Virus record (IMG/VR): IMGVR_UViG_2657245091_000018
DNA from: a virus
Taxonomy: Duplodnaviria > Heunggongvirae > Uroviricota > Caudoviricetes
Strand: one strand, 5' to 3'
DNA: 30,872 nucleotides
The first letter of the stretch is position 1. Each line of letters starts with the position of its first letter. The notes under the pieces are model-generated. The model was not told where the DNA came from, did no database searches, and saw only the letters and a program-made list of their open reading frames with translations. Positions 5,415 through 30,872 of the stretch are shown here, in pieces. The position numbers and the translations under genes were made by a program.

Positions 5415-8207
5415 ATGTGGGGTCTGATTTTGGAAAGAAAAATTATTTTTAATAATGGTTTTTTAAGTATAAATAGGGAAGTTATAATTATCTTCTTGAT
5501 CTACTTTATTCTGGTCGGGTTGGGTATTTCCGGTGTAATCTACTCTAGATATGTTGATGAAGGGGTAAAGTATTTACTTGTAACACCATCTTTTCTCAAT
5601 AATTCCCCATTGAATTGGACTACTAGTGTTTGGGCGGGAGTTTTAGGCATACATGGAACTATTGCTGCACTATCAATTACATTTATGGGAATGTTTGTTA
5701 GTCAGGTTTCTAATTATTCTGAACATGGCTTTGAAAATATTTGTAAGTCGATGTTGTTGCGGAAAACTAGTTTTTTAAAGTTTAGTTTAAATTCTATTTT
5801 TAGTCTTTTAAGTGGTATCGTATTGCTTTCATGTGGTGGCGGCATGATTACTTATGCTATATCCATTTTTGTATCGTTATACTTTATTTTTAATTATGGT
5901 TCAATGTATCTGAAATTATATAATGTTACTGAGAATCCAACTATAATAACTGATCGTTTATTTTTTGAGCTTGATAAGGCTAAAAATGATTATTTATTGA
6001 TTGACGAACGTAGAAGAACTATAGAAAATAAATTTTTAAACATGATTAATGATTTTGAATATATTCATTATGGGTGGGATTCCGATTTTATCAATAAAGG
6101 ACAACGTAAGTTAAATATTTTCCAAAATAATCAAAATGTCATTATTAATGATTTTTGTCCAATTTGCTTTAAAGAAATTAACAATGAGCTAGAGCGTTTT
6201 TCGAAAGTGGTACGTACTGATTTACGCGTGAATCTTAACTTTATATATCCACTATCAACCTCATCGGTTCATATTGAAGTGCAAGATGGAGCGTCGATCG
6301 ATGAGCTATTAATTAGTAATGTTACAAAACTATTGAAAAAAGGATTGGTGTTCAGTTCAGCTCCTGAAAGCTTCTTGAATTACGGTAAGTATGAAGATGC
6401 AGTAGTTATTAGCTTAAGAAATAGTCTTTTTAGTGGTAATGAGTTAGCGTTAGATTTTAGCATAAGAGCTATCTTCACATTAGTTAGTGAAACTGAATTA
6501 GTTAAAGTAATACATAACCTCAATCACTCTTTTGGTTATACTAACAAAAAAAATAATATAGAGTATTCAATTTTTGCTGCTTTTTATATGAAGGTTAGTT
6601 CTGAAGTGAGTGGGTATAAAAACTATAATATAGTGTGTGATGCTCTTCGATCGATTATGGATTTGGGAAGGTATATTTATGATAATGAGCAATATGATGA
6701 ATTTTATAAATTGATATCACCGTCATTGGAACATCGTGCTCAATATAGTTTAGGTGATCCAGAATATCGTTTTTTTGATTTATATATGTCAACGGTGAGA
6801 GACAACATCTTGTCAAAGAATTATTTGGCATTTAGCCTGAATACTCGATTCTTGACTGAGAAATTTCGTTATCCAGAGTCATCTGATGATGGCGAAACCC
6901 TTAGTATCATTGAGAACAAGATGGTATCGTGTGTAAGACAGGTTATAACTTTACTGATTATTAGGCTGTGCTATTTATCTGAAAAAAGTGATGGGCATCA
7001 GGAGGAATTGAGAATAATAAAACAGAATTTAATGAAATGGTTAGCACCTTCATTCCTAGAAGATCTTTTTTATAAGAGTGGCGTGTATGATGTTATATTT
7101 ACAGTCCCATCTGAACCTGATTTTGATGCAAGTAGAACTTTAAGAGATATACCTGATTATGAGGTTGCAACCTTTTCAATAAATAACGATGCTTTCAAAG
7201 CAGTATCCCTTTTAATGACTCAAACATTATTTAATAAAAACAACTTCAATCCTATTTTTATACGTAATAAAAAAGAGTTTATTAAAAATACAAAAATAAC
7301 AACTCATGAACTGCAATCACTTATATCATATTTGAAAGGTGATGAATTTTCAGCTTTATTAGAGTTGATTAATGAAGGATCTTCTCAAGAAACAAATCGG
7401 ATGGAGGTTGCAGAGCATCTTGAAAGTATAATTTCTGTAAAAAATGAATTAATCGCAAATTCTATTGTTTCTTCTGACCTTGATAAGGTTCTGGTTAATA
7501 AATACATAGATAAAGTATCAATATCATTAGGTGGGTATTTTAATAAATTCGTAGATATTGATTCTATTCCTGTGTCAAATTCAGTTGTCTGCAATCCATT
7601 CTATTCATTGATTAATAAGAGAGAAGTCTTGCAGTCAATTGATAAAGTGCATTATTCAATGAATAGTTCACATCATGCTGAAGTGTTTGTCTATGCTTGG
7701 CTTCATAAAATGCTTGATGGAATTAAAGGCCAATATAAAGATGTAAATGAGATCGAAGATGTAAGTGAACTACCTTCCGATAAGCTTATAACAATTCATT
7801 ACATGGTTAAAGGAGAGGCAAGTGTTTACCGTTACTCAAAAGGTATGAGAATAACAGATTCAAAAGGAGTTTTGGGTTTGGGGTCTCCTGGTCTTTACTA
7901 CATGGATTTTTTGAGCGTATTTTCCTGTCTGCGGAATACTAATTTATTTGATTTGAAAATTGAAAGTATTTCTGATGAGAATATTTCCTTAGTTAAGGGG
8001 TTGTATAATTTCAAGGATGAAAATCCATTGATGTACGCGCTGATGTCTATTAGGATTAATTTGGAATTTATTAATAACGATGGCTTGTCGTTTTATTATA
8101 TTTCTGTAGATAGTTGTAAAAAAATCACTGCATTACATGAACAAAAACTTCGTCTATCTTTTAATGATAAAAAACCAATGGATGATATTGGTGAACTTTC
8201 AGATTAA
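5415..8207 (+). CDS. Large membrane-anchored protein of unknown function (930 aa); candidate hotspot-encoded anti-phage or exclusion protein
   Basis: An uninterrupted 2793-nt ORF in roughly 25-30% GC DNA is unlikely by chance, because stop codons are AT-rich. Hydrophobic helices lie at residues ~23-43, 69-95, 123-140 and 144-163 (nt 5481-5903). They are followed by ~765 aa of soluble N/K/I/S/E-rich sequence. I can recognise no Walker A, HNH/HxH, PD-(D/E)xK, Toprim, TIR or SIR2 signature. The ATG at 5415 directly follows an in-frame TAA and has no clear SD; TTG 5430, downstream of GGGG, is an alternative start. Confidence 0.85.
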   Translation: MWGLILERKIIFNNGFLSINREVIIIFLIYFILVGLGISGVIYSRYVDEGVKYLLVTPSFLNNSPLNWTTSVWAGVLGIHGTIAALSITFMGMFVSQVSNYSEHGFENICKSMLLRKTSFLKFSLNSIFSLLSGIVLLSCGGGMITYAISIFVSLYFIFNYGSMYLKLYNVTENPTIITDRLFFELDKAKNDYLLIDERRRTIENKFLNMINDFEYIHYGWDSDFINKGQRKLNIFQNNQNVIINDFCPICFKEINNELERFSKVVRTDLRVNLNFIYPLSTSSVHIEVQDGASIDELLISNVTKLLKKGLVFSSAPESFLNYGKYEDAVVISLRNSLFSGNELALDFSIRAIFTLVSETELVKVIHNLNHSFGYTNKKNNIEYSIFAAFYMKVSSEVSGYKNYNIVCDALRSIMDLGRYIYDNEQYDEFYKLISPSLEHRAQYSLGDPEYRFFDLYMSTVRDNILSKNYLAFSLNTRFLTEKFRYPESSDDGETLSIIENKMVSCVRQVITLLIIRLCYLSEKSDGHQEELRIIKQNLMKWLAPSFLEDLFYKSGVYDVIFTVPSEPDFDASRTLRDIPDYEVATFSINNDAFKAVSLLMTQTLFNKNNFNPIFIRNKKEFIKNTKITTHELQSLISYLKGDEFSALLELINEGSSQETNRMEVAEHLESIISVKNELIANSIVSSDLDKVLVNKYIDKVSISLGGYFNKFVDIDSIPVSNSVVCNPFYSLINKREVLQSIDKVHYSMNSSHHAEVFVYAWLHKMLDGIKGQYKDVNEIEDVSELPSDKLITIHYMVKGEASVYRYSKGMRITDSKGVLGLGSPGLYYMDFLSVFSCLRNTNLFDLKIESISDENISLVKGLYNFKDENPLMYALMSIRINLEFINNDGLSFYYISVDSCKKITALHEQKLRLSFNDKKPMDDIGELSD

Positions 8208-8469: not shown

Positions 8470-8796
8470 TTATGTAGTTTGCCCACTGAGCAGGTCCAGC
8501 GCGAATTGACGTTCTTCCGGCTTGAGCCGGTCAATCAGGAATTTAACCAGCTTGTTGCCGGTCAGCCCGCTGGGGCTGAGGGTATGTGAAAACTCAACGC
8601 TATAAACAAATGTATGACCACATTCCACTTCTGTGCAGCCACAGTATAAAGACGCCAGTTTTTTATCTTTCCAGTCAGATTTGCGAATGATGGCCGGTGA
8701 GCCGCATTCAGGACATTTAATTTTAAAAACTCGCATGTTCACCATCCCGCACGCCATTGCTAATAATGGGGGGGATTTTAACTTAACTGCGCTCAT
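8470..8796 (-). CDS. Ogr/Delta-type zinc-finger late transcription activator homologue
   Basis: KCPECG...(x22)...CTEVEC gives C-x2-C-x22-C-x4-C, the spacing I recall for P2 Ogr. The long form (108 aa) starts at an ATG overlapping the portal stop (ATGA at 8793-8796). A shorter canonical form, MRVFKIKCPECG, would start at 8736 and is preceded by GGTG. Confidence 0.8.
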   Translation of the reverse strand: MSAVKLKSPPLLAMACGMVNMRVFKIKCPECGSPAIIRKSDWKDKKLASLYCGCTEVECGHTFVYSVEFSHTLSPSGLTGNKLVKFLIDRLKPEERQFALDLLSGQTT

Positions 8797-27597: not shown

Positions 27598-29322
27598 ATG
27601 AAACCAATTAAACGCCTGTACCTTTCCTCTGATCCGGTCCATCTGATTGACTGCAATATCGTGCTGGAGCTGAACGCGTGCGGTCGGGGGTTTATTACGG
27701 CGGGGACAGAGACAGATTACACCGGCAAAATGGTGCGTATCGATGTTGGTTATGATGGTCTGGTCCTGCGCTGGTTTACCGGGTACGTCGAACGGTCACA
27801 GCCTGCTGATAATGGAACATGCCGGTTGTTCGTGCGTGAGCTGGTCGGCATCTTTGATAAATTGTGGCCGTGTTCTTTCCAGCATCCAACGTTGCGCCAG
27901 ATTACTGACTGGATAAGTGAGCAAAGCGGGCTGACCGTCACAACGCCGGTCGGCGCTGCTTATGCAGATAAACCGATCCCCCACTTTACGCACAGCGGCA
28001 CGGGCTATCAGCTTTTTGCCAGTCTGGGCCGTGCATTTTCAGTGACGGATTATCTTTGGTATCAGTTGCCGGACGGGGATGTCTTCGTCGGCGCTGCGGA
28101 GCATAGTCTTTTTGCGGGAAAACCAGTGGAGATCCCGCACGAATTTAGCCAGGAATCGGCAGGCGGAAATTCAATGGTTGTGCCAATGATTCAGAGCCTG
28201 CGCCCGGGTGCGGAGGTAAACGGCCAGCGGCTGAACCAGGTCCGGCTAAATAACGATGACATGGCAATTACCTGGCAGCCCCGCAACAAAGCCAACGGCC
28301 AGCCATTGCAAAAATCACCCATTCAGCGGCAGATTGAAAACGCATTCCCGGAGCTGGCAAGCGGCCTGCATCTTCCAAGATTCGCTAGGGTGGAAGCGCC
28401 AAGCGAGGATGTTTCAGGGGGGGATATTGCCGATCCATTCCGCCCACGCTATGCCGTGGATCTCCAGCTGCTTGACGAAGACGGCAAGCCAGCCGCAAAT
28501 ACGCCGATCTATTCTGCCGTTCCACTACCTGTGCCAATGGCGGGCAGCGAGTCAGGAATGTTTCAGTTTCCGCCCCCTGGCACGCTGGTTGAAGTTGGGT
28601 TCACTGAGGGGCGGCAGGATAAGCCCTTTGTGCGTCAGATTATGGCGGAGGGTCATAACCTGCCAGCGGTTAAACCCGGTGAGCAGTTGCAGCAACAGCG
28701 CGATGGTGTATCGCAGCGCGTGACGGTTGCCGGAGACTGGGAACGCCAGACGGATCAGACAATCCGCGAAAACTCCATGACTCGCGAAGTCACCACCGAC
28801 GAAGAGATCCGCAAAGTGGTTGCCCGTGAAACTACGGTCCAGGCAACAGATAAAACAACCGTGCTTGGCACGGCCACACTTCTGGCCGGGGCGGTCGTTC
28901 ATATCAGCGAGGGGGATTACAGCGTCGGCACATCCGGCAACCTGACAGTAACCTGCAGCAAGGACAATTCCGTCAGTGTTGGCCGGAACGTGAAACGGGA
29001 TGTCGCGGGCAATGTTACAGACGACGTGAAAGGGGATGTCACGTCAAACGTCAGCGGCGCACTGACTGAAAAAATCAGCGGCATTCGCCGAAGTGTGGCC
29101 CAGGCGCAACAACTGATTGCCCCGGTGGTAAAGCTGGGAAGCGAAGAGATTAACGTCCTGACACTGCTCACCGACACCCTGGACGTGGTGAGGGAGCTGG
29201 CAGAGACTGCCGCATCACATACTCACCCCAATACGGGGGCCAGTGGGCAGGCGGCGCAGTTCACCGCAACGGCCAATAAAACCGGCACATTGAAAAGCAA
29301 ATACGGCCCCCTGATAGCCTGA
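27598..29322 (+). CDS. Baseplate hub fused to central spike (gpD-like N-terminal half plus gpV-like OB-fold, beta-helix and HxH apex; VgrG-like), 574 aa
   Basis: It is the last gene of the tail operon, as gpD is in P2. The OB-fold motif FQFPPPGTLVEVGFTEGRQDKPFVRQIM (28561-28644) matches the gpV/VgrG pattern PxxGxxVxVxFxxGdxdxPxV. Short V/N/D/T repeats (NVKRDVAGNVTDDVKGDVTSNVSG) suggest a beta-helix. SHTHP (H at 29218-29226) sits near the C-terminus. Confidence 0.6.
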   Translation: MKPIKRLYLSSDPVHLIDCNIVLELNACGRGFITAGTETDYTGKMVRIDVGYDGLVLRWFTGYVERSQPADNGTCRLFVRELVGIFDKLWPCSFQHPTLRQITDWISEQSGLTVTTPVGAAYADKPIPHFTHSGTGYQLFASLGRAFSVTDYLWYQLPDGDVFVGAAEHSLFAGKPVEIPHEFSQESAGGNSMVVPMIQSLRPGAEVNGQRLNQVRLNNDDMAITWQPRNKANGQPLQKSPIQRQIENAFPELASGLHLPRFARVEAPSEDVSGGDIADPFRPRYAVDLQLLDEDGKPAANTPIYSAVPLPVPMAGSESGMFQFPPPGTLVEVGFTEGRQDKPFVRQIMAEGHNLPAVKPGEQLQQQRDGVSQRVTVAGDWERQTDQTIRENSMTREVTTDEEIRKVVARETTVQATDKTTVLGTATLLAGAVVHISEGDYSVGTSGNLTVTCSKDNSVSVGRNVKRDVAGNVTDDVKGDVTSNVSGALTEKISGIRRSVAQAQQLIAPVVKLGSEEINVLTLLTDTLDVVRELAETAASHTHPNTGASGQAAQFTATANKTGTLKSKYGPLIA

Positions 29323-29389
29323 CAAAAAAGCGGCATAACCGCACACCTCACCAGACACCACAGAACGCGCCACAGCAGGCGCAAAGATT

Positions 29390-29425
29390 AAAGGTCGCCA
29401 CCGTGCGGCCTTTCTTTCGTTCGTT
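29390..29425 (+). terminator. Rho-independent terminator of the tail operon
   Basis: AAA-GGTCGC (29393-29398) - 6-nt loop - GCGGCC (29405-29410) - TTTCTTTCGTTCGTT, with one G-U pair. It lies 68 nt downstream of the stop at 29322. Confidence 0.6.
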
Positions 29426-29527
29426 CAACAGCGGCCCACAGCGTAAGCGACAGCAGGCAAACGGAAGCGGATCCAGGACGGAAACGGCGCTACACCGCAC
29501 CCGCCTGCGCAGTTTGGATCATAAAAA

Positions 29528-29816
29528 TTTTGCAAAAGAAATTTTGTGCAAAGCACCCCGCCAGCCTGCGCCGCTGCTGGGCTTTTGCATCCTGCGGGCG
29601 TTGCACTCTGCGCAAAGATTTGCAGCACTTTGCAAAAGTCATCGCGCCGCCAGCTACTAACTGACTGGATAACATGATGTTTTTAAAAGGATCGTTTTGG
29701 TTTCCGTGACGATCAAAATGATTAGGTGGTATCCGATGGTTTTCGGGGGCGGATATCGTGAAGCCTTGTGCGGTGAGGGCTGGCGGCTAGTTTGCTTTGA
29801 TTTGGGTTTTGCAAAA
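29528..29816. repeat. Cluster of TTTTGCAAAA palindromes and TTTGC/GCAAA half-sites in non-coding DNA
   Basis: The perfect 10-bp palindrome TTTTGCAAAA occurs at 29528-29537 and 29807-29816. CTTTGCAAAAG occurs at 29628-29638. GCAAAGATTTGC occurs at 29612-29623. Further half-sites lie at 29548, 29584 and 29791. I count at least 11 half-sites in about 290 bp. Confidence 0.6.
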
Positions 29817-29852
29817 TGATGCACGAAGTTTTGATAAAAGGATCTCTAGCTA

Positions 29853-29887
29853 AGGGGGAGGGGAACGTATAAAAACCCCCGCCCTCT
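29853..29887. other. GC-rich imperfect hairpin downstream of the AbiH-like gene (possible non-canonical terminator)
   Basis: AGGGGGAGGGG (29853-29863) - 12-nt loop - CCCCCGCCCTCT (29876-29887), with one mismatch and one wobble pair. It starts 20 nt beyond the minus-strand stop at 29907. There is no clean U-tract after the stem on either strand. Confidence 0.3.
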
Positions 29888-29906
29888 GGGTGATATTTTG
29901 TTCTAT

Positions 29907-30872
29907 TTATAGAAGTTTACTTACTGAAATCAGTTTGGGTGATTTAATGCCAATCTCACATAATGTTGTATGATGTGCTTCACGCTCAGTTTCCTGATAA
30001 TAGGTGGCTATCCATTCCGTATTTTCACTAACAATGCTATGTATAAAAGAAAAGTAGGGAACATCTACAGATGATAACGAATGGCCGATGATGATGATTT
30101 CGTCTACGTTGCTGAGATTTTTAAAAAATTTAGCGCTGTCAGCAATGACTTTTTCAGTATTCTTAAAAGAACAAGTGAAGTATTTATTAATAGTCTGCTT
30201 TCCCATTTCATAAGAGTGATCGTAATTATCAGCCATACACTGACGCCACTCTTCAAGTTCTTCATCGGTTGCATTTTCGGGCGGGACTGCTTCCTTTTCT
30301 TCAAAGTTGATAGGGTCAATACCATGACCTAAAATCAACTGTTGATCTGATGATGCTTTTCCATGGATATATAAAATTTGTCTATCATCAATACCATAGT
30401 ATTTCTGAAGAGTCTCAGTATAATTAAAACTGATAAAGATAGAGTCAGAATCGATACGCAATCTTTTATTTAAATTAAGTTCGGGGTAGTTAACCTGCAA
30501 TATAAATGACTTGAATTGTGTTAAAAGCCCTTCGGTTAAATTTTTTAGTATACGTTCCATTTCAATGCTTAATGAGCCCCAGTCCTTGTCACGAAAATCA
30601 GGGCTGCTAATTTGGGGTAAAAGATAGCAAAACTCTTCGAGCACTGACTCTGTATCCAGACCCGCTAAGCTGTTTTCGAAATCAGACCAAAGAAAATGTT
30701 TTGACTTATCAACTGCGGAAAGTTTAGGGGGTAAGTCAGTAAATCCCATAAAATCAACCAAGTGATCGTAAATGTCTTGGTCTTTCTTCCGAAGATAATC
30801 CCCAAATGAGAAATAGCTCGTGTCAAGTTCGTGATGCAGATCAAACCCATTCCCGATGATGTATAGCTTCAT
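29907..30872 (-). CDS. abiH: AbiH-family abortive infection protein, 321 aa
   Basis: The N-terminus MKLYIIGNGFDLHHELDTSYFSFGDYL matches the hallmark IIGNGFDLxHGLxTSYxDF start of the AbiH family (Pfam AbiH, from memory). The gene is AT-rich. Its ATG is the last triplet of the window, so its promoter lies outside. Confidence 0.8.
   Translation of the reverse strand: MKLYIIGNGFDLHHELDTSYFSFGDYLRKKDQDIYDHLVDFMGFTDLPPKLSAVDKSKHFLWSDFENSLAGLDTESVLEEFCYLLPQISSPDFRDKDWGSLSIEMERILKNLTEGLLTQFKSFILQVNYPELNLNKRLRIDSDSIFISFNYTETLQKYYGIDDRQILYIHGKASSDQQLILGHGIDPINFEEKEAVPPENATDEELEEWRQCMADNYDHSYEMGKQTINKYFTCSFKNTEKVIADSAKFFKNLSNVDEIIIIGHSLSSVDVPYFSFIHSIVSENTEWIATYYQETEREAHHTTLCEIGIKSPKLISVSKLL

Follow-up and report, generated by a model that had tools for sequence, protein, structure and literature searches.

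An AbiH-family gene as probable defence cargo between the last late gene and the attachment site of a P2-like Escherichia coli prophage

AbiH is an abortive infection system whose lactococcal prototype was reportedly described by Prevots et al. in 1996, and to our knowledge its mechanism has been unknown since that year. In PADLOC and DefenseFinder it appears as a single-gene system named 'AbiH', and its protein belongs to Pfam family PF14253. A 2026 review describes lactococcal AbiH as SIR2-like in structure, with NAD+ depletion as the proposed activity, and still lists the mechanism as unknown (PMC13064643). AbiH has been placed among the antiphage SIR2 ('SIRim') proteins, and NAD+ depletion is proposed for it (PMC13064643; bioRxiv 10.1101/2024.09.18.613514). 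These NADase effectors include ThsA of Thoeris, DSR2, SIR2-HerA (Nezha), KomC, Avs5 and human FAM118B, and their catalytic pair consists of Asn and His, represented by N112 and H152 in ThsA (bioRxiv 10.1101/2024.09.18.613514).

Defence genes carried by P2-like prophages are also well documented, and several hotspots for them have been described. They include the intervals from gpA to portal, downstream of gpL, from integrase to att, and from integrase to primase (PMC13586616), of which the gpA-to-portal hotspot was defined in both PMC9122126 and PMC13586616. Additionally, a 'third hotspot' was reported between a tail protein and CI (bioRxiv 10.1101/2024.10.15.618418). The locus described here resembles the P2-like hotspots (old/tin at gpA-portal, Z/fun, and the third hotspot) in carrying small, low-GC cargo flanked by conserved phage genes, with defence genes that differ between related phages.

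The window, meaning the whole stretch of 30,872 nucleotides that was analysed, is 100% identical to positions 221708-252579 of E. coli 2011C-4251 (NZ_CP027388.1). At its right-hand end lies abiH (29907..30872, minus strand), an intact open reading frame of 321 aa that starts with ATG and whose product begins with MKLYIIGNGFDLHHELDTSYFSFGDYL. A 321-aa frame on the minus strand, assigned to the AbiH family and awaiting a Pfam check, had been proposed by an earlier, sequence-only reading of this DNA, and both the frame and the assignment are borne out. The product matches PF14253 with E = 2.4e-60 and 205.3 bits (curated cutoff 30.9), and the match spans residues 3-291 and profile positions 1-260 of 260, which is the full length of the model. 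Moreover, the PADLOC AbiH model matches the same product (E = 2.1e-29), and RefSeq names the identical protein 'bacteriophage abortive infection AbiH family protein'. On these profile matches, abiH is a genuine AbiH-family gene. Its GC content is 36.5%, against 56.3% in the adjacent tail gene and 51% over the entire window, in agreement with the low-GC contrast that had been pointed out earlier. The ATG occupies the very end of the window, so that the promoter region and the DNA further to the right fall outside it; that DNA was taken from the source genome.

The likeness to lactococcal AbiH includes membership of the same Pfam family by a full-length profile match, and it extends to a single gene without a conserved partner, carriage by mobile elements and a predicted SIR2-like fold. 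The two differ in host and carrier. Here the gene belongs to a Gram-negative enterobacterium and a temperate P2-like phage, whereas lactococcal AbiH is chromosomal and linked to conjugative elements (PMC13064643).

The SIR2-like fold predicted for the abiH product shows in fold comparison and in its motifs. In an alignment of 89 homologues, all matching PF14253, 25 residues are invariant, and the invariant motifs are G7-N8-G9-F10-D11, F149-N150, H170, G182-H183 and G263-H264-S265. Their order is that of sirtuins: strand 1 and a Gly-rich loop, a strand followed by N150, a helix, a strand with I-H170-G, and a strand with G-H-S. A helical insert follows strand 1 and the CxxC zinc module is absent, so the protein is predicted to have a SIR2-type Rossmann fold with a helical insert and no Zn-binding module. 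SIRim proteins have been described with this same set of features (bioRxiv 10.1101/2024.09.18.613514). Judged by motif order, N150 and H170 are the candidate catalytic pair; H183, which is also invariant, could be the catalytic histidine. The predicted relationship to SIR2 is visible at the level of the fold only. Foldseek links to SIR2 folds are weak (E = 2e-3 to 0.4), Pfam SIR2/SIR2_2 gave no hit in the 89 AbiH members at E up to 5, an AbiH profile search of PDB sequences returned no sirtuin and only chance hits to 5'-nucleotidase and lipase, and hhalign of AbiH against E. coli CobB gave an uninformative probability of 0.5%. Compared with the SIRim effectors, AbiH is a stand-alone protein of 321 aa with no fused sensor domain (SLOG, STAND or C-terminal sensor), no partner such as HerA or ThsB, and no detected similarity at the profile level. 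The earlier remark that the AbiH mechanism is poorly understood remains right experimentally, but a SIR2-like fold with proposed NAD+ depletion had already been published (PMC13064643; bioRxiv 10.1101/2024.09.18.613514).

The window takes in most of a P2-family prophage sitting between yegR and yegQ. The early part of this prophage contains, in order, integrase, repressor and cox, an IS3 insertion, a methylase, the replication endonuclease gpA, a 930-aa low-GC gene and ogr. The late part continues with portal and terminase, capsid, lysis and tail modules (the last including an HP1_ORF34-type baseplate protein), a 574-aa last late gene and abiH, after which comes yegQ. The product of the last late gene (27598..29322, plus strand) is baseplate or spike-like, and the gene forms the conserved left anchor of the slot in which abiH lies. 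After it stands a terminator-like hairpin with a 9-pair stem and a T-rich tail (29390..29413, plus strand; L001 20068-20091), which is kept in relatives. The orientation of abiH is opposite to that of the tail operon and the same as that of yegQ. A relE/parD toxin-antitoxin pair is found just past yegQ.

The nearest relatives of the late region are Salmonella phages SI7, SW3 and SW5 of the genus Irrigatiovirus. The integrase shares 86.6% identity with P2 Int and just 51% with its SI7 counterpart, which indicates that the prophage is a mosaic of an Irrigatiovirus-type late region and a P2-type int/att module. By these sequence comparisons, the late region and the packaging site are Irrigatiovirus/HP1-like, and the integrase/att module is P2-type. 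Given the IS3 insertion in its early region, the prophage of strain 2011C-4251 may be defective.

The DNA to the left of abiH had earlier been taken as non-coding DNA of about 50% GC. The contrast in GC is real, but far from being an anonymous spacer, this DNA is strongly conserved over at least nine genera and most likely contains a packaging site (cos) with a short cohesive end. It contains a 33-nt core, GACGGAAACGGCGCTACACCGCACCCGCCTGCG (29477..29509, no strand assigned), which is invariant in 15 sequences from at least nine genera and is probably where cos is cleaved. In Salmonella phage SW5, the linear record has its last base at the position corresponding to window 29498 and its first at 29497, and the SI7 assembly is without exactly the 7 nt CTACACC (29490-29496), a candidate cohesive end. 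Phage HP1 has cohesive ends of 7 nt. An array of TTTGCAA-type repeats adjoins the core (29528..29638, no strand assigned), and one further copy lies at 29807-29818. In the Ewingella, Kosakonia and Brenneria relatives, a TTTCAG/CTGAAA-type motif replaces every TTTGCAA-type copy, with positions unchanged. Such a joint replacement of all copies at the same positions suggests that the repeats co-vary with a DNA-binding protein, and they are candidate binding sites for terminase or an accessory protein. If cos is placed in this way, the virion map would read cos, about 410 nt, abiH, terminator, P arm, attP and int.

SI7 and the Citrobacter and Kluyvera prophages, relatives free of cargo, were aligned to obtain the boundaries of the DNA that carries abiH. 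In these, a single terminator hairpin, AAAAACCCCCGC...GGGGTTTTT, stands right before the attP arm with its TGTGGAC sites. Homology between E. coli and these relatives ends after AAAAACCCCCGC and returns at the AAAACCCCGC...GGGGTTT hairpin (about L001 21627) and the TGTGGAC arm sites. The copy of AAAAACCCCCGC at the left boundary, the 5' half of the terminator hairpin, lies at 29871..29882 (plus strand), and the near-copy AAAACCCCGC marks the right border of the insert, beyond the window end. The part of this low-GC insert inside the window covers 29883..30872 (no strand assigned). The whole insert measures about 1.07 kb and runs about 77 nt past the window end, as far as a terminator hairpin of P2 type (L001 21625-21651, or ~30947-30973 if the window numbering is continued). 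It holds abiH as its sole gene, which leaves flanks of 77 nt upstream of the ATG and 24 nt downstream of the stop codon.

The DNA upstream of abiH is 94% conserved among three phage-associated copies, and a search there for sigma-70 promoters gave 3 consensus hits with 4.0 expected, which is the chance level; no convincing -35/-10 pair was found in the 77 nt before the ATG. A hairpin just downstream of the stop codon was considered as the abiH terminator and is unsupported, the stability of the RNA being no better than that of shuffled sequence (z = -0.25). H-NS silencing has been shown for other low-GC cargo of P2 prophages (bioRxiv 10.64898/2026.09.05.749240), and by analogy the present insert may be silenced by H-NS. 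Since no convincing sigma-70 promoter was seen and H-NS silencing is possible, expression of AbiH in the lysogen is an assumption of what follows.

The same slot was mapped in relatives. For the 574-aa gene, thirteen relatives in other genera were gathered, and at their loci the conserved block and arm sites were located, along with the open reading frames in between. The slot is essentially empty in SI7, Citrobacter and Kluyvera. In one relative (L017) it holds a 269-aa AbiJ-like/Abi_C gene, oriented as abiH and followed by a TGTGGAC site; in others it holds a Shosta-like pair of ShosA and a ShosT-like gene (L018), a 590-aa HEPN_Apea protein (L019), a reverse transcriptase (L016), a Tlde1-domain protein (L021), or a 131-aa reading frame without an assigned family (L020). 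This comparison is suggestive of a cargo slot after the cos block that is variable among relatives and in several of them occupied by other defence-type genes; in E. coli its content, abiH, is of atypical composition (36.5% GC against 56.3%).

With respect to the described P2 hotspots, abiH lies in neither of the two classical ones, gpA-to-portal and Z/fun within the tail genes. It differs from them in its place between the last late gene with cos and the P arm of attP, on the side of att opposite to the integrase. The minor hotspot of PMC13586616 is located between integrase and att, unlike the abiH slot, and the 'third hotspot' of bioRxiv 10.1101/2024.10.15.618418, which is delimited loosely as tail to CI, takes in the abiH position only in a broad sense. 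The classical gpA-to-portal hotspot is instead the place of the 930-aa gene (5415..8207, plus strand; 30.8% GC), which lies between the replication endonuclease and ogr/portal. Together with abiH, this gene had been taken to make the element a defence carrier. Its low GC and its hotspot position fit that proposal, but its product matched no family in PADLOC or Pfam, so a prophage carrying defence at two loci is plausible and only half shown.

The position of abiH relative to the attachment site was established from the source genome. A 22-bp exact repeat, AAAAAATAAGCCCGTGTAAGGG, is present once between yegR and the integrase stop codon (L002 10299-10320) and once between the abiH ATG (L001 21550) and the yegQ stop codon (L001 21887), where it occupies L001 21716-21737. 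The right copy lengthens to a 27-nt P2-type core, AAAAAATAAGCCCGTGTAAGGGAGATT (L001 21716-21742), located 166 bp past the abiH start codon and just beyond the window end. Moreover, L001 21623-21742 aligns with bacteriophage P2 24263-24382, a segment annotated with the rho-independent terminator of the ogr/F operon, Int P-arm sites, an IHF site and the attP core. In other words, a P2-type terminator and the Int P-arm and IHF sites stand between abiH and the right att core. A tRNA was ruled out as the integration site: tRNA and Rfam scans over the whole window gave no matches, and the prophage is integrated at the terminator of a protein gene, yegQ. The sequence-only reading had offered prophage-end cargo, a moron next to attR, as one possibility and had pointed to the DNA on the right as the place to look for att repeats; the duplicated core, with its right copy past abiH and P2-type arm elements between, agrees with this. 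By this mapping, abiH is prophage cargo between attL and attR and belongs to the phage genome.

The distribution of the junction leads to the same result. A 701-nt probe across abiH, attR and yegQ was run against 5,426 complete E. coli genomes and reached a coverage of at least 80% in exactly 19 of them. In most other E. coli genomes, homology to the probe starts at its position 317, the first base of the att core. In the K-12 and B type strains, which hold an old P2 remnant (gpD', ogrK) at the yegQ site, it starts at position 245, in the P arm, and strain UMNF18 represents the empty site, with yegR directly followed by yegQ. The phage tail region (at least 99.9% identity) occurs only in the same 19 genomes that have abiH. 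Thus abiH is never found there without phage DNA at yegQ: each of the 19 carriers has the tail genes of the phage and shares the junction. The case that the sequence-only reading had named as evidence against phage cargo, abiH at this site in strains lacking the prophage, was therefore not encountered in these genomes.

Copies of abiH outside this E. coli lineage allow its conservation to be assessed. Salmonella has a 92%-identical AbiH in the same arrangement of yegQ, abiH and tail gene, and an intact, 83%-identical abiH is present in a prophage remnant of another enterobacterium (L006). Between its two att cores, this remnant retains only the final ~140 nt of the tail gene and the cos block, then abiH, a fragment of portal, ogr, a 570-aa cargo gene and an integrase stub; structural genes amounting to about 20 kb and the stretch from int to gpA are lost. 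The 570-aa gene was tested for homology with the 930-aa gene of the window and is unrelated, and it matched nothing in Pfam or PADLOC. A comparable case is the cryptic P2 remnant of K-12 (gpD' pseudogene, ogrK, yegQ), which uses the same attB at the yegQ terminator and keeps a P2-type P arm. It retains ogr and a gpD fragment without a defence gene, whereas the L006 remnant has kept both abiH and another cargo gene, along with the cos block. The persistence of abiH after loss of the phage points to a benefit for the host.

Across the three phage-linked copies, which are 8-17% diverged, the gene has exactly 321 codons and is unbroken in each. Its dN/dS is 0.36-0.39 in these copies, compared with 0.09 for the tail gene, and on these ratios abiH is under purifying selection that is somewhat relaxed. 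More distant homologues are numerous (857 at E <= 1e-5), yet beyond the three phage-linked copies the best identity falls to about 56%. These 56%-identical homologues sit in CP4-57-type integrative islands, flanked by variable HNH nuclease genes, and share no neighbour with phage abiH; plasmid-borne homologues are about 45% identical. The neighbours of abiH homologues therefore differ entirely between the phage context, the remnant and the CP4-57-type islands, and by this comparison abiH is an AbiH-type single-gene system, a conserved partner gene being absent. A tblastn search of 50,697 deposited phage genomes found no AbiH homologue. Phage-borne AbiH is nevertheless not unprecedented, since IMG/VR contains 106 relatives on predicted viral contigs. 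Those lying at most 3 kb from a viral-contig end number 17 of 51, against 6.8 expected, which is weak evidence for a terminal position, as proviruses are called with imprecise boundaries and the set was not dereplicated.

Taken together, abiH is probably single-gene AbiH defence cargo, a 'moron', of a P2-like E. coli prophage, acting through destruction of NAD+. The lysogen would make AbiH and hold it inactive. Infection by another phage would then activate the protein, probably by oligomerisation, as in other antiphage SIR2 enzymes, in which the usual switch is the assembly of filaments or tetramers. Its SIR2-like active site (with N150 and H170 as candidate residues and GNGFD and GHS as the NAD-binding loops) would then destroy NAD+. 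The loss of NAD+ would stop phage production in the infected cell, so that the lysogen population, and hence the prophage, would be protected. For the chemistry on its own, supposing that abiH is a defence gene, infection-triggered NAD+ depletion is modestly favoured as the way in which AbiH would act, given the sirtuin motif order, the SIRim-type features and the published structural conclusion on lactococcal AbiH. The same active site may instead operate without bulk depletion of NAD+, by ADP-ribosylation or deacylation of a specific phage or host target or by producing a signalling nucleotide; this is considered unlikely.

Two further explanations concern the status of the gene as defence cargo. 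The first base of the att core is where homology begins in prophage-free chromosomes, and strains without the prophage run from yegR straight to yegQ. These facts bear on the suggestion, also made in the sequence-only reading, that abiH is a host gene that only abuts the prophage end, being the first gene of an adjacent defence island. Such a reading could appeal to the direct adjacency and common orientation of abiH and the core gene yegQ, to a low GC that is equally compatible with a chromosomal island, and to the toxin-antitoxin pair close beyond yegQ. However, abiH is separated from yegQ by the att core as well as by Int arm sites, an IHF site and a terminator of P2 type, and abiH without phage DNA was never found in the 5,426 E. 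coli genomes. The att mapping, the 19 carriers and the empty site of UMNF18 exclude the host-island alternative for practical purposes, leaving it exceedingly improbable.

A different proposal is that abiH, although kept as cargo, does not at present serve defence in E. coli and is silenced, neutral, or of service to the phage itself, as in lysis-lysogeny physiology or against satellites. No promoter was identified upstream of abiH, low-GC prophage cargo is commonly silenced by H-NS (bioRxiv 10.64898/2026.09.05.749240), and the dN/dS exceeds that of the tail gene (0.37 vs 0.09), all of which would suit this proposal. The E. coli lineage is also rare and nearly clonal (19 genomes, at least 99.9% identical), so that persistence of the gene in E. 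coli says little. Against this, the ratio is well below 1 and the 321-codon frame is unbroken over copies that are 8-17% diverged, all catalytic-type AbiH motifs are invariant, and the same slot in relatives carries other recognised defence genes. The copy in a remnant from which nearly all phage genes have gone argues for a benefit to the host and not to the phage. On balance, absence of a defence role is quite unlikely, and defence cargo carried by the prophage is the preferred reading of abiH.

As a prophage carrying a defence gene, the finding is clear but ordinary, since AbiH is already annotated in RefSeq, defence genes of P2-like prophages are well documented, and the SIR2-like character of AbiH has been published. 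What is added here is a base-level map of the insert between cos and attP, evidence that this slot varies among relatives, and a case of the gene outliving its prophage. The practical value lies in a tractable AbiH model: E. coli has its own stand-alone copy of 321 aa, and the 1.07-kb insert that bears it is defined. With coliphage panels and E. coli genetics, NAD+ depletion, the trigger, and the control of the off-state in a SIR2 domain that has neither partner nor sensor become directly testable.

Beyond this, P2-family phages with Irrigatiovirus/HP1-like tails might have a distinct, undissected hotspot of defence cargo between cos and the attP arm, and the stand-alone AbiH of E. coli might be the minimal self-sensing SIR2 effector. 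This is a speculative combination, and we regard it as rather improbable. If it were true, the cargo would lie at the very tip of the chromosome as packaged and, in the lysogen, beside attR. Such an end position could explain the swapping of genes at the terminator hairpin, as well as the survival of cargo, along with cos, through the decay of a prophage, as in the L006 remnant. In this way, defence genes domesticated by the host could remain linked to a phage packaging site.

By its sequence, the phage is a mosaic in which a P2-type integrase and att module is joined to late genes and a probable cos region of the Irrigatiovirus/HP1-like type. Its integrase shares 86.6% identity with that of P2 and 51% with that of the Salmonella phage SI7 (L002 10405-11412, on the left side of the source locus, against L003 6822-7829), and ogr (window 8470-8796) adjoins the portal gene; in P2, ogr lies at the att end. 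The abiH gene occupies the exact joint of the two modules. At the other end, the window starts inside an IS3-family element present in this strain (window 1-~150; L002 12645-13858), which splits the prophage's early region, separating the ORFs on the cox side from the fil-like gene. Because of this interruption, the prophage of this strain may be defective.

The apparent spacer located 3' of the last tail gene (window 29323-29830) is kept in at least nine genera; it probably represents the cos site of the phage. Both ends of the linear record of Salmonella phage SW5 fall exactly within this block, and precisely seven nucleotides of its core (29477-29509), CTACACC (29490-29496), are missing from the SI7 assembly. 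The core is accompanied by repeats (29528-29638 and 29807-29818); in a distant subgroup, the TTTGCAA repeats beside it are exchanged as a set for TTTCAG repeats, which suggests that they are binding sites co-evolving with a packaging protein.

Just past the window end, the att core overlaps the terminator hairpin of yegQ (L001 21724-21751). In the Salmonella and remnant copies, the two sides of the stem change in pairs (CCTGTGTAA/TTACACGGG versus CCTGCGTAA/TTACGCAGG), and such paired changes indicate that integration rebuilds a working yegQ terminator. A variable locus external to the prophage lies further on, between yegQ and yegP, where a relE/parE-parD toxin-antitoxin pair (L001 23351-23945) is present in this strain and in UMNF18 and missing in the one K-12-type strain examined.

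When the slot was placed by its position after the cos block in relatives of this phage from Ewingella, Kosakonia and Brenneria, it was found to be filled by defence-type genes other than abiH. Its contents included a reverse transcriptase (L016 9016-9774), an AbiJ-like/Abi_C gene (L017 9030-9839), ShosA with a ShosT-like gene (L018 8289-10494), a HEPN_Apea protein (L019 6758-8530) and a Tlde1-domain protein (L021 4293-4784). The classical P2 hotspot between gpA and ogr/portal holds a plus-strand gene of 930 aa and 30.8% GC (window 5415-8207), with neither a PADLOC match nor a significant Pfam match, which is a candidate for an uncharacterised defence gene.

This hotspot position is filled by a different, likewise unannotated cargo gene of 570 aa, unrelated to that of the window, in a doubly deleted prophage remnant lying between two att cores (L006 1-5700, a Logan contig of SRR28386961; related contigs L007-L009). 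The host is another enterobacterium, with 77-86% nucleotide identity to E. coli core genes. Apart from this gene, the remnant retains nothing more than abiH with the cos block, a portal fragment, ogr and an integrase stub; it represents a clear case of defence cargo that has outlived its phage.
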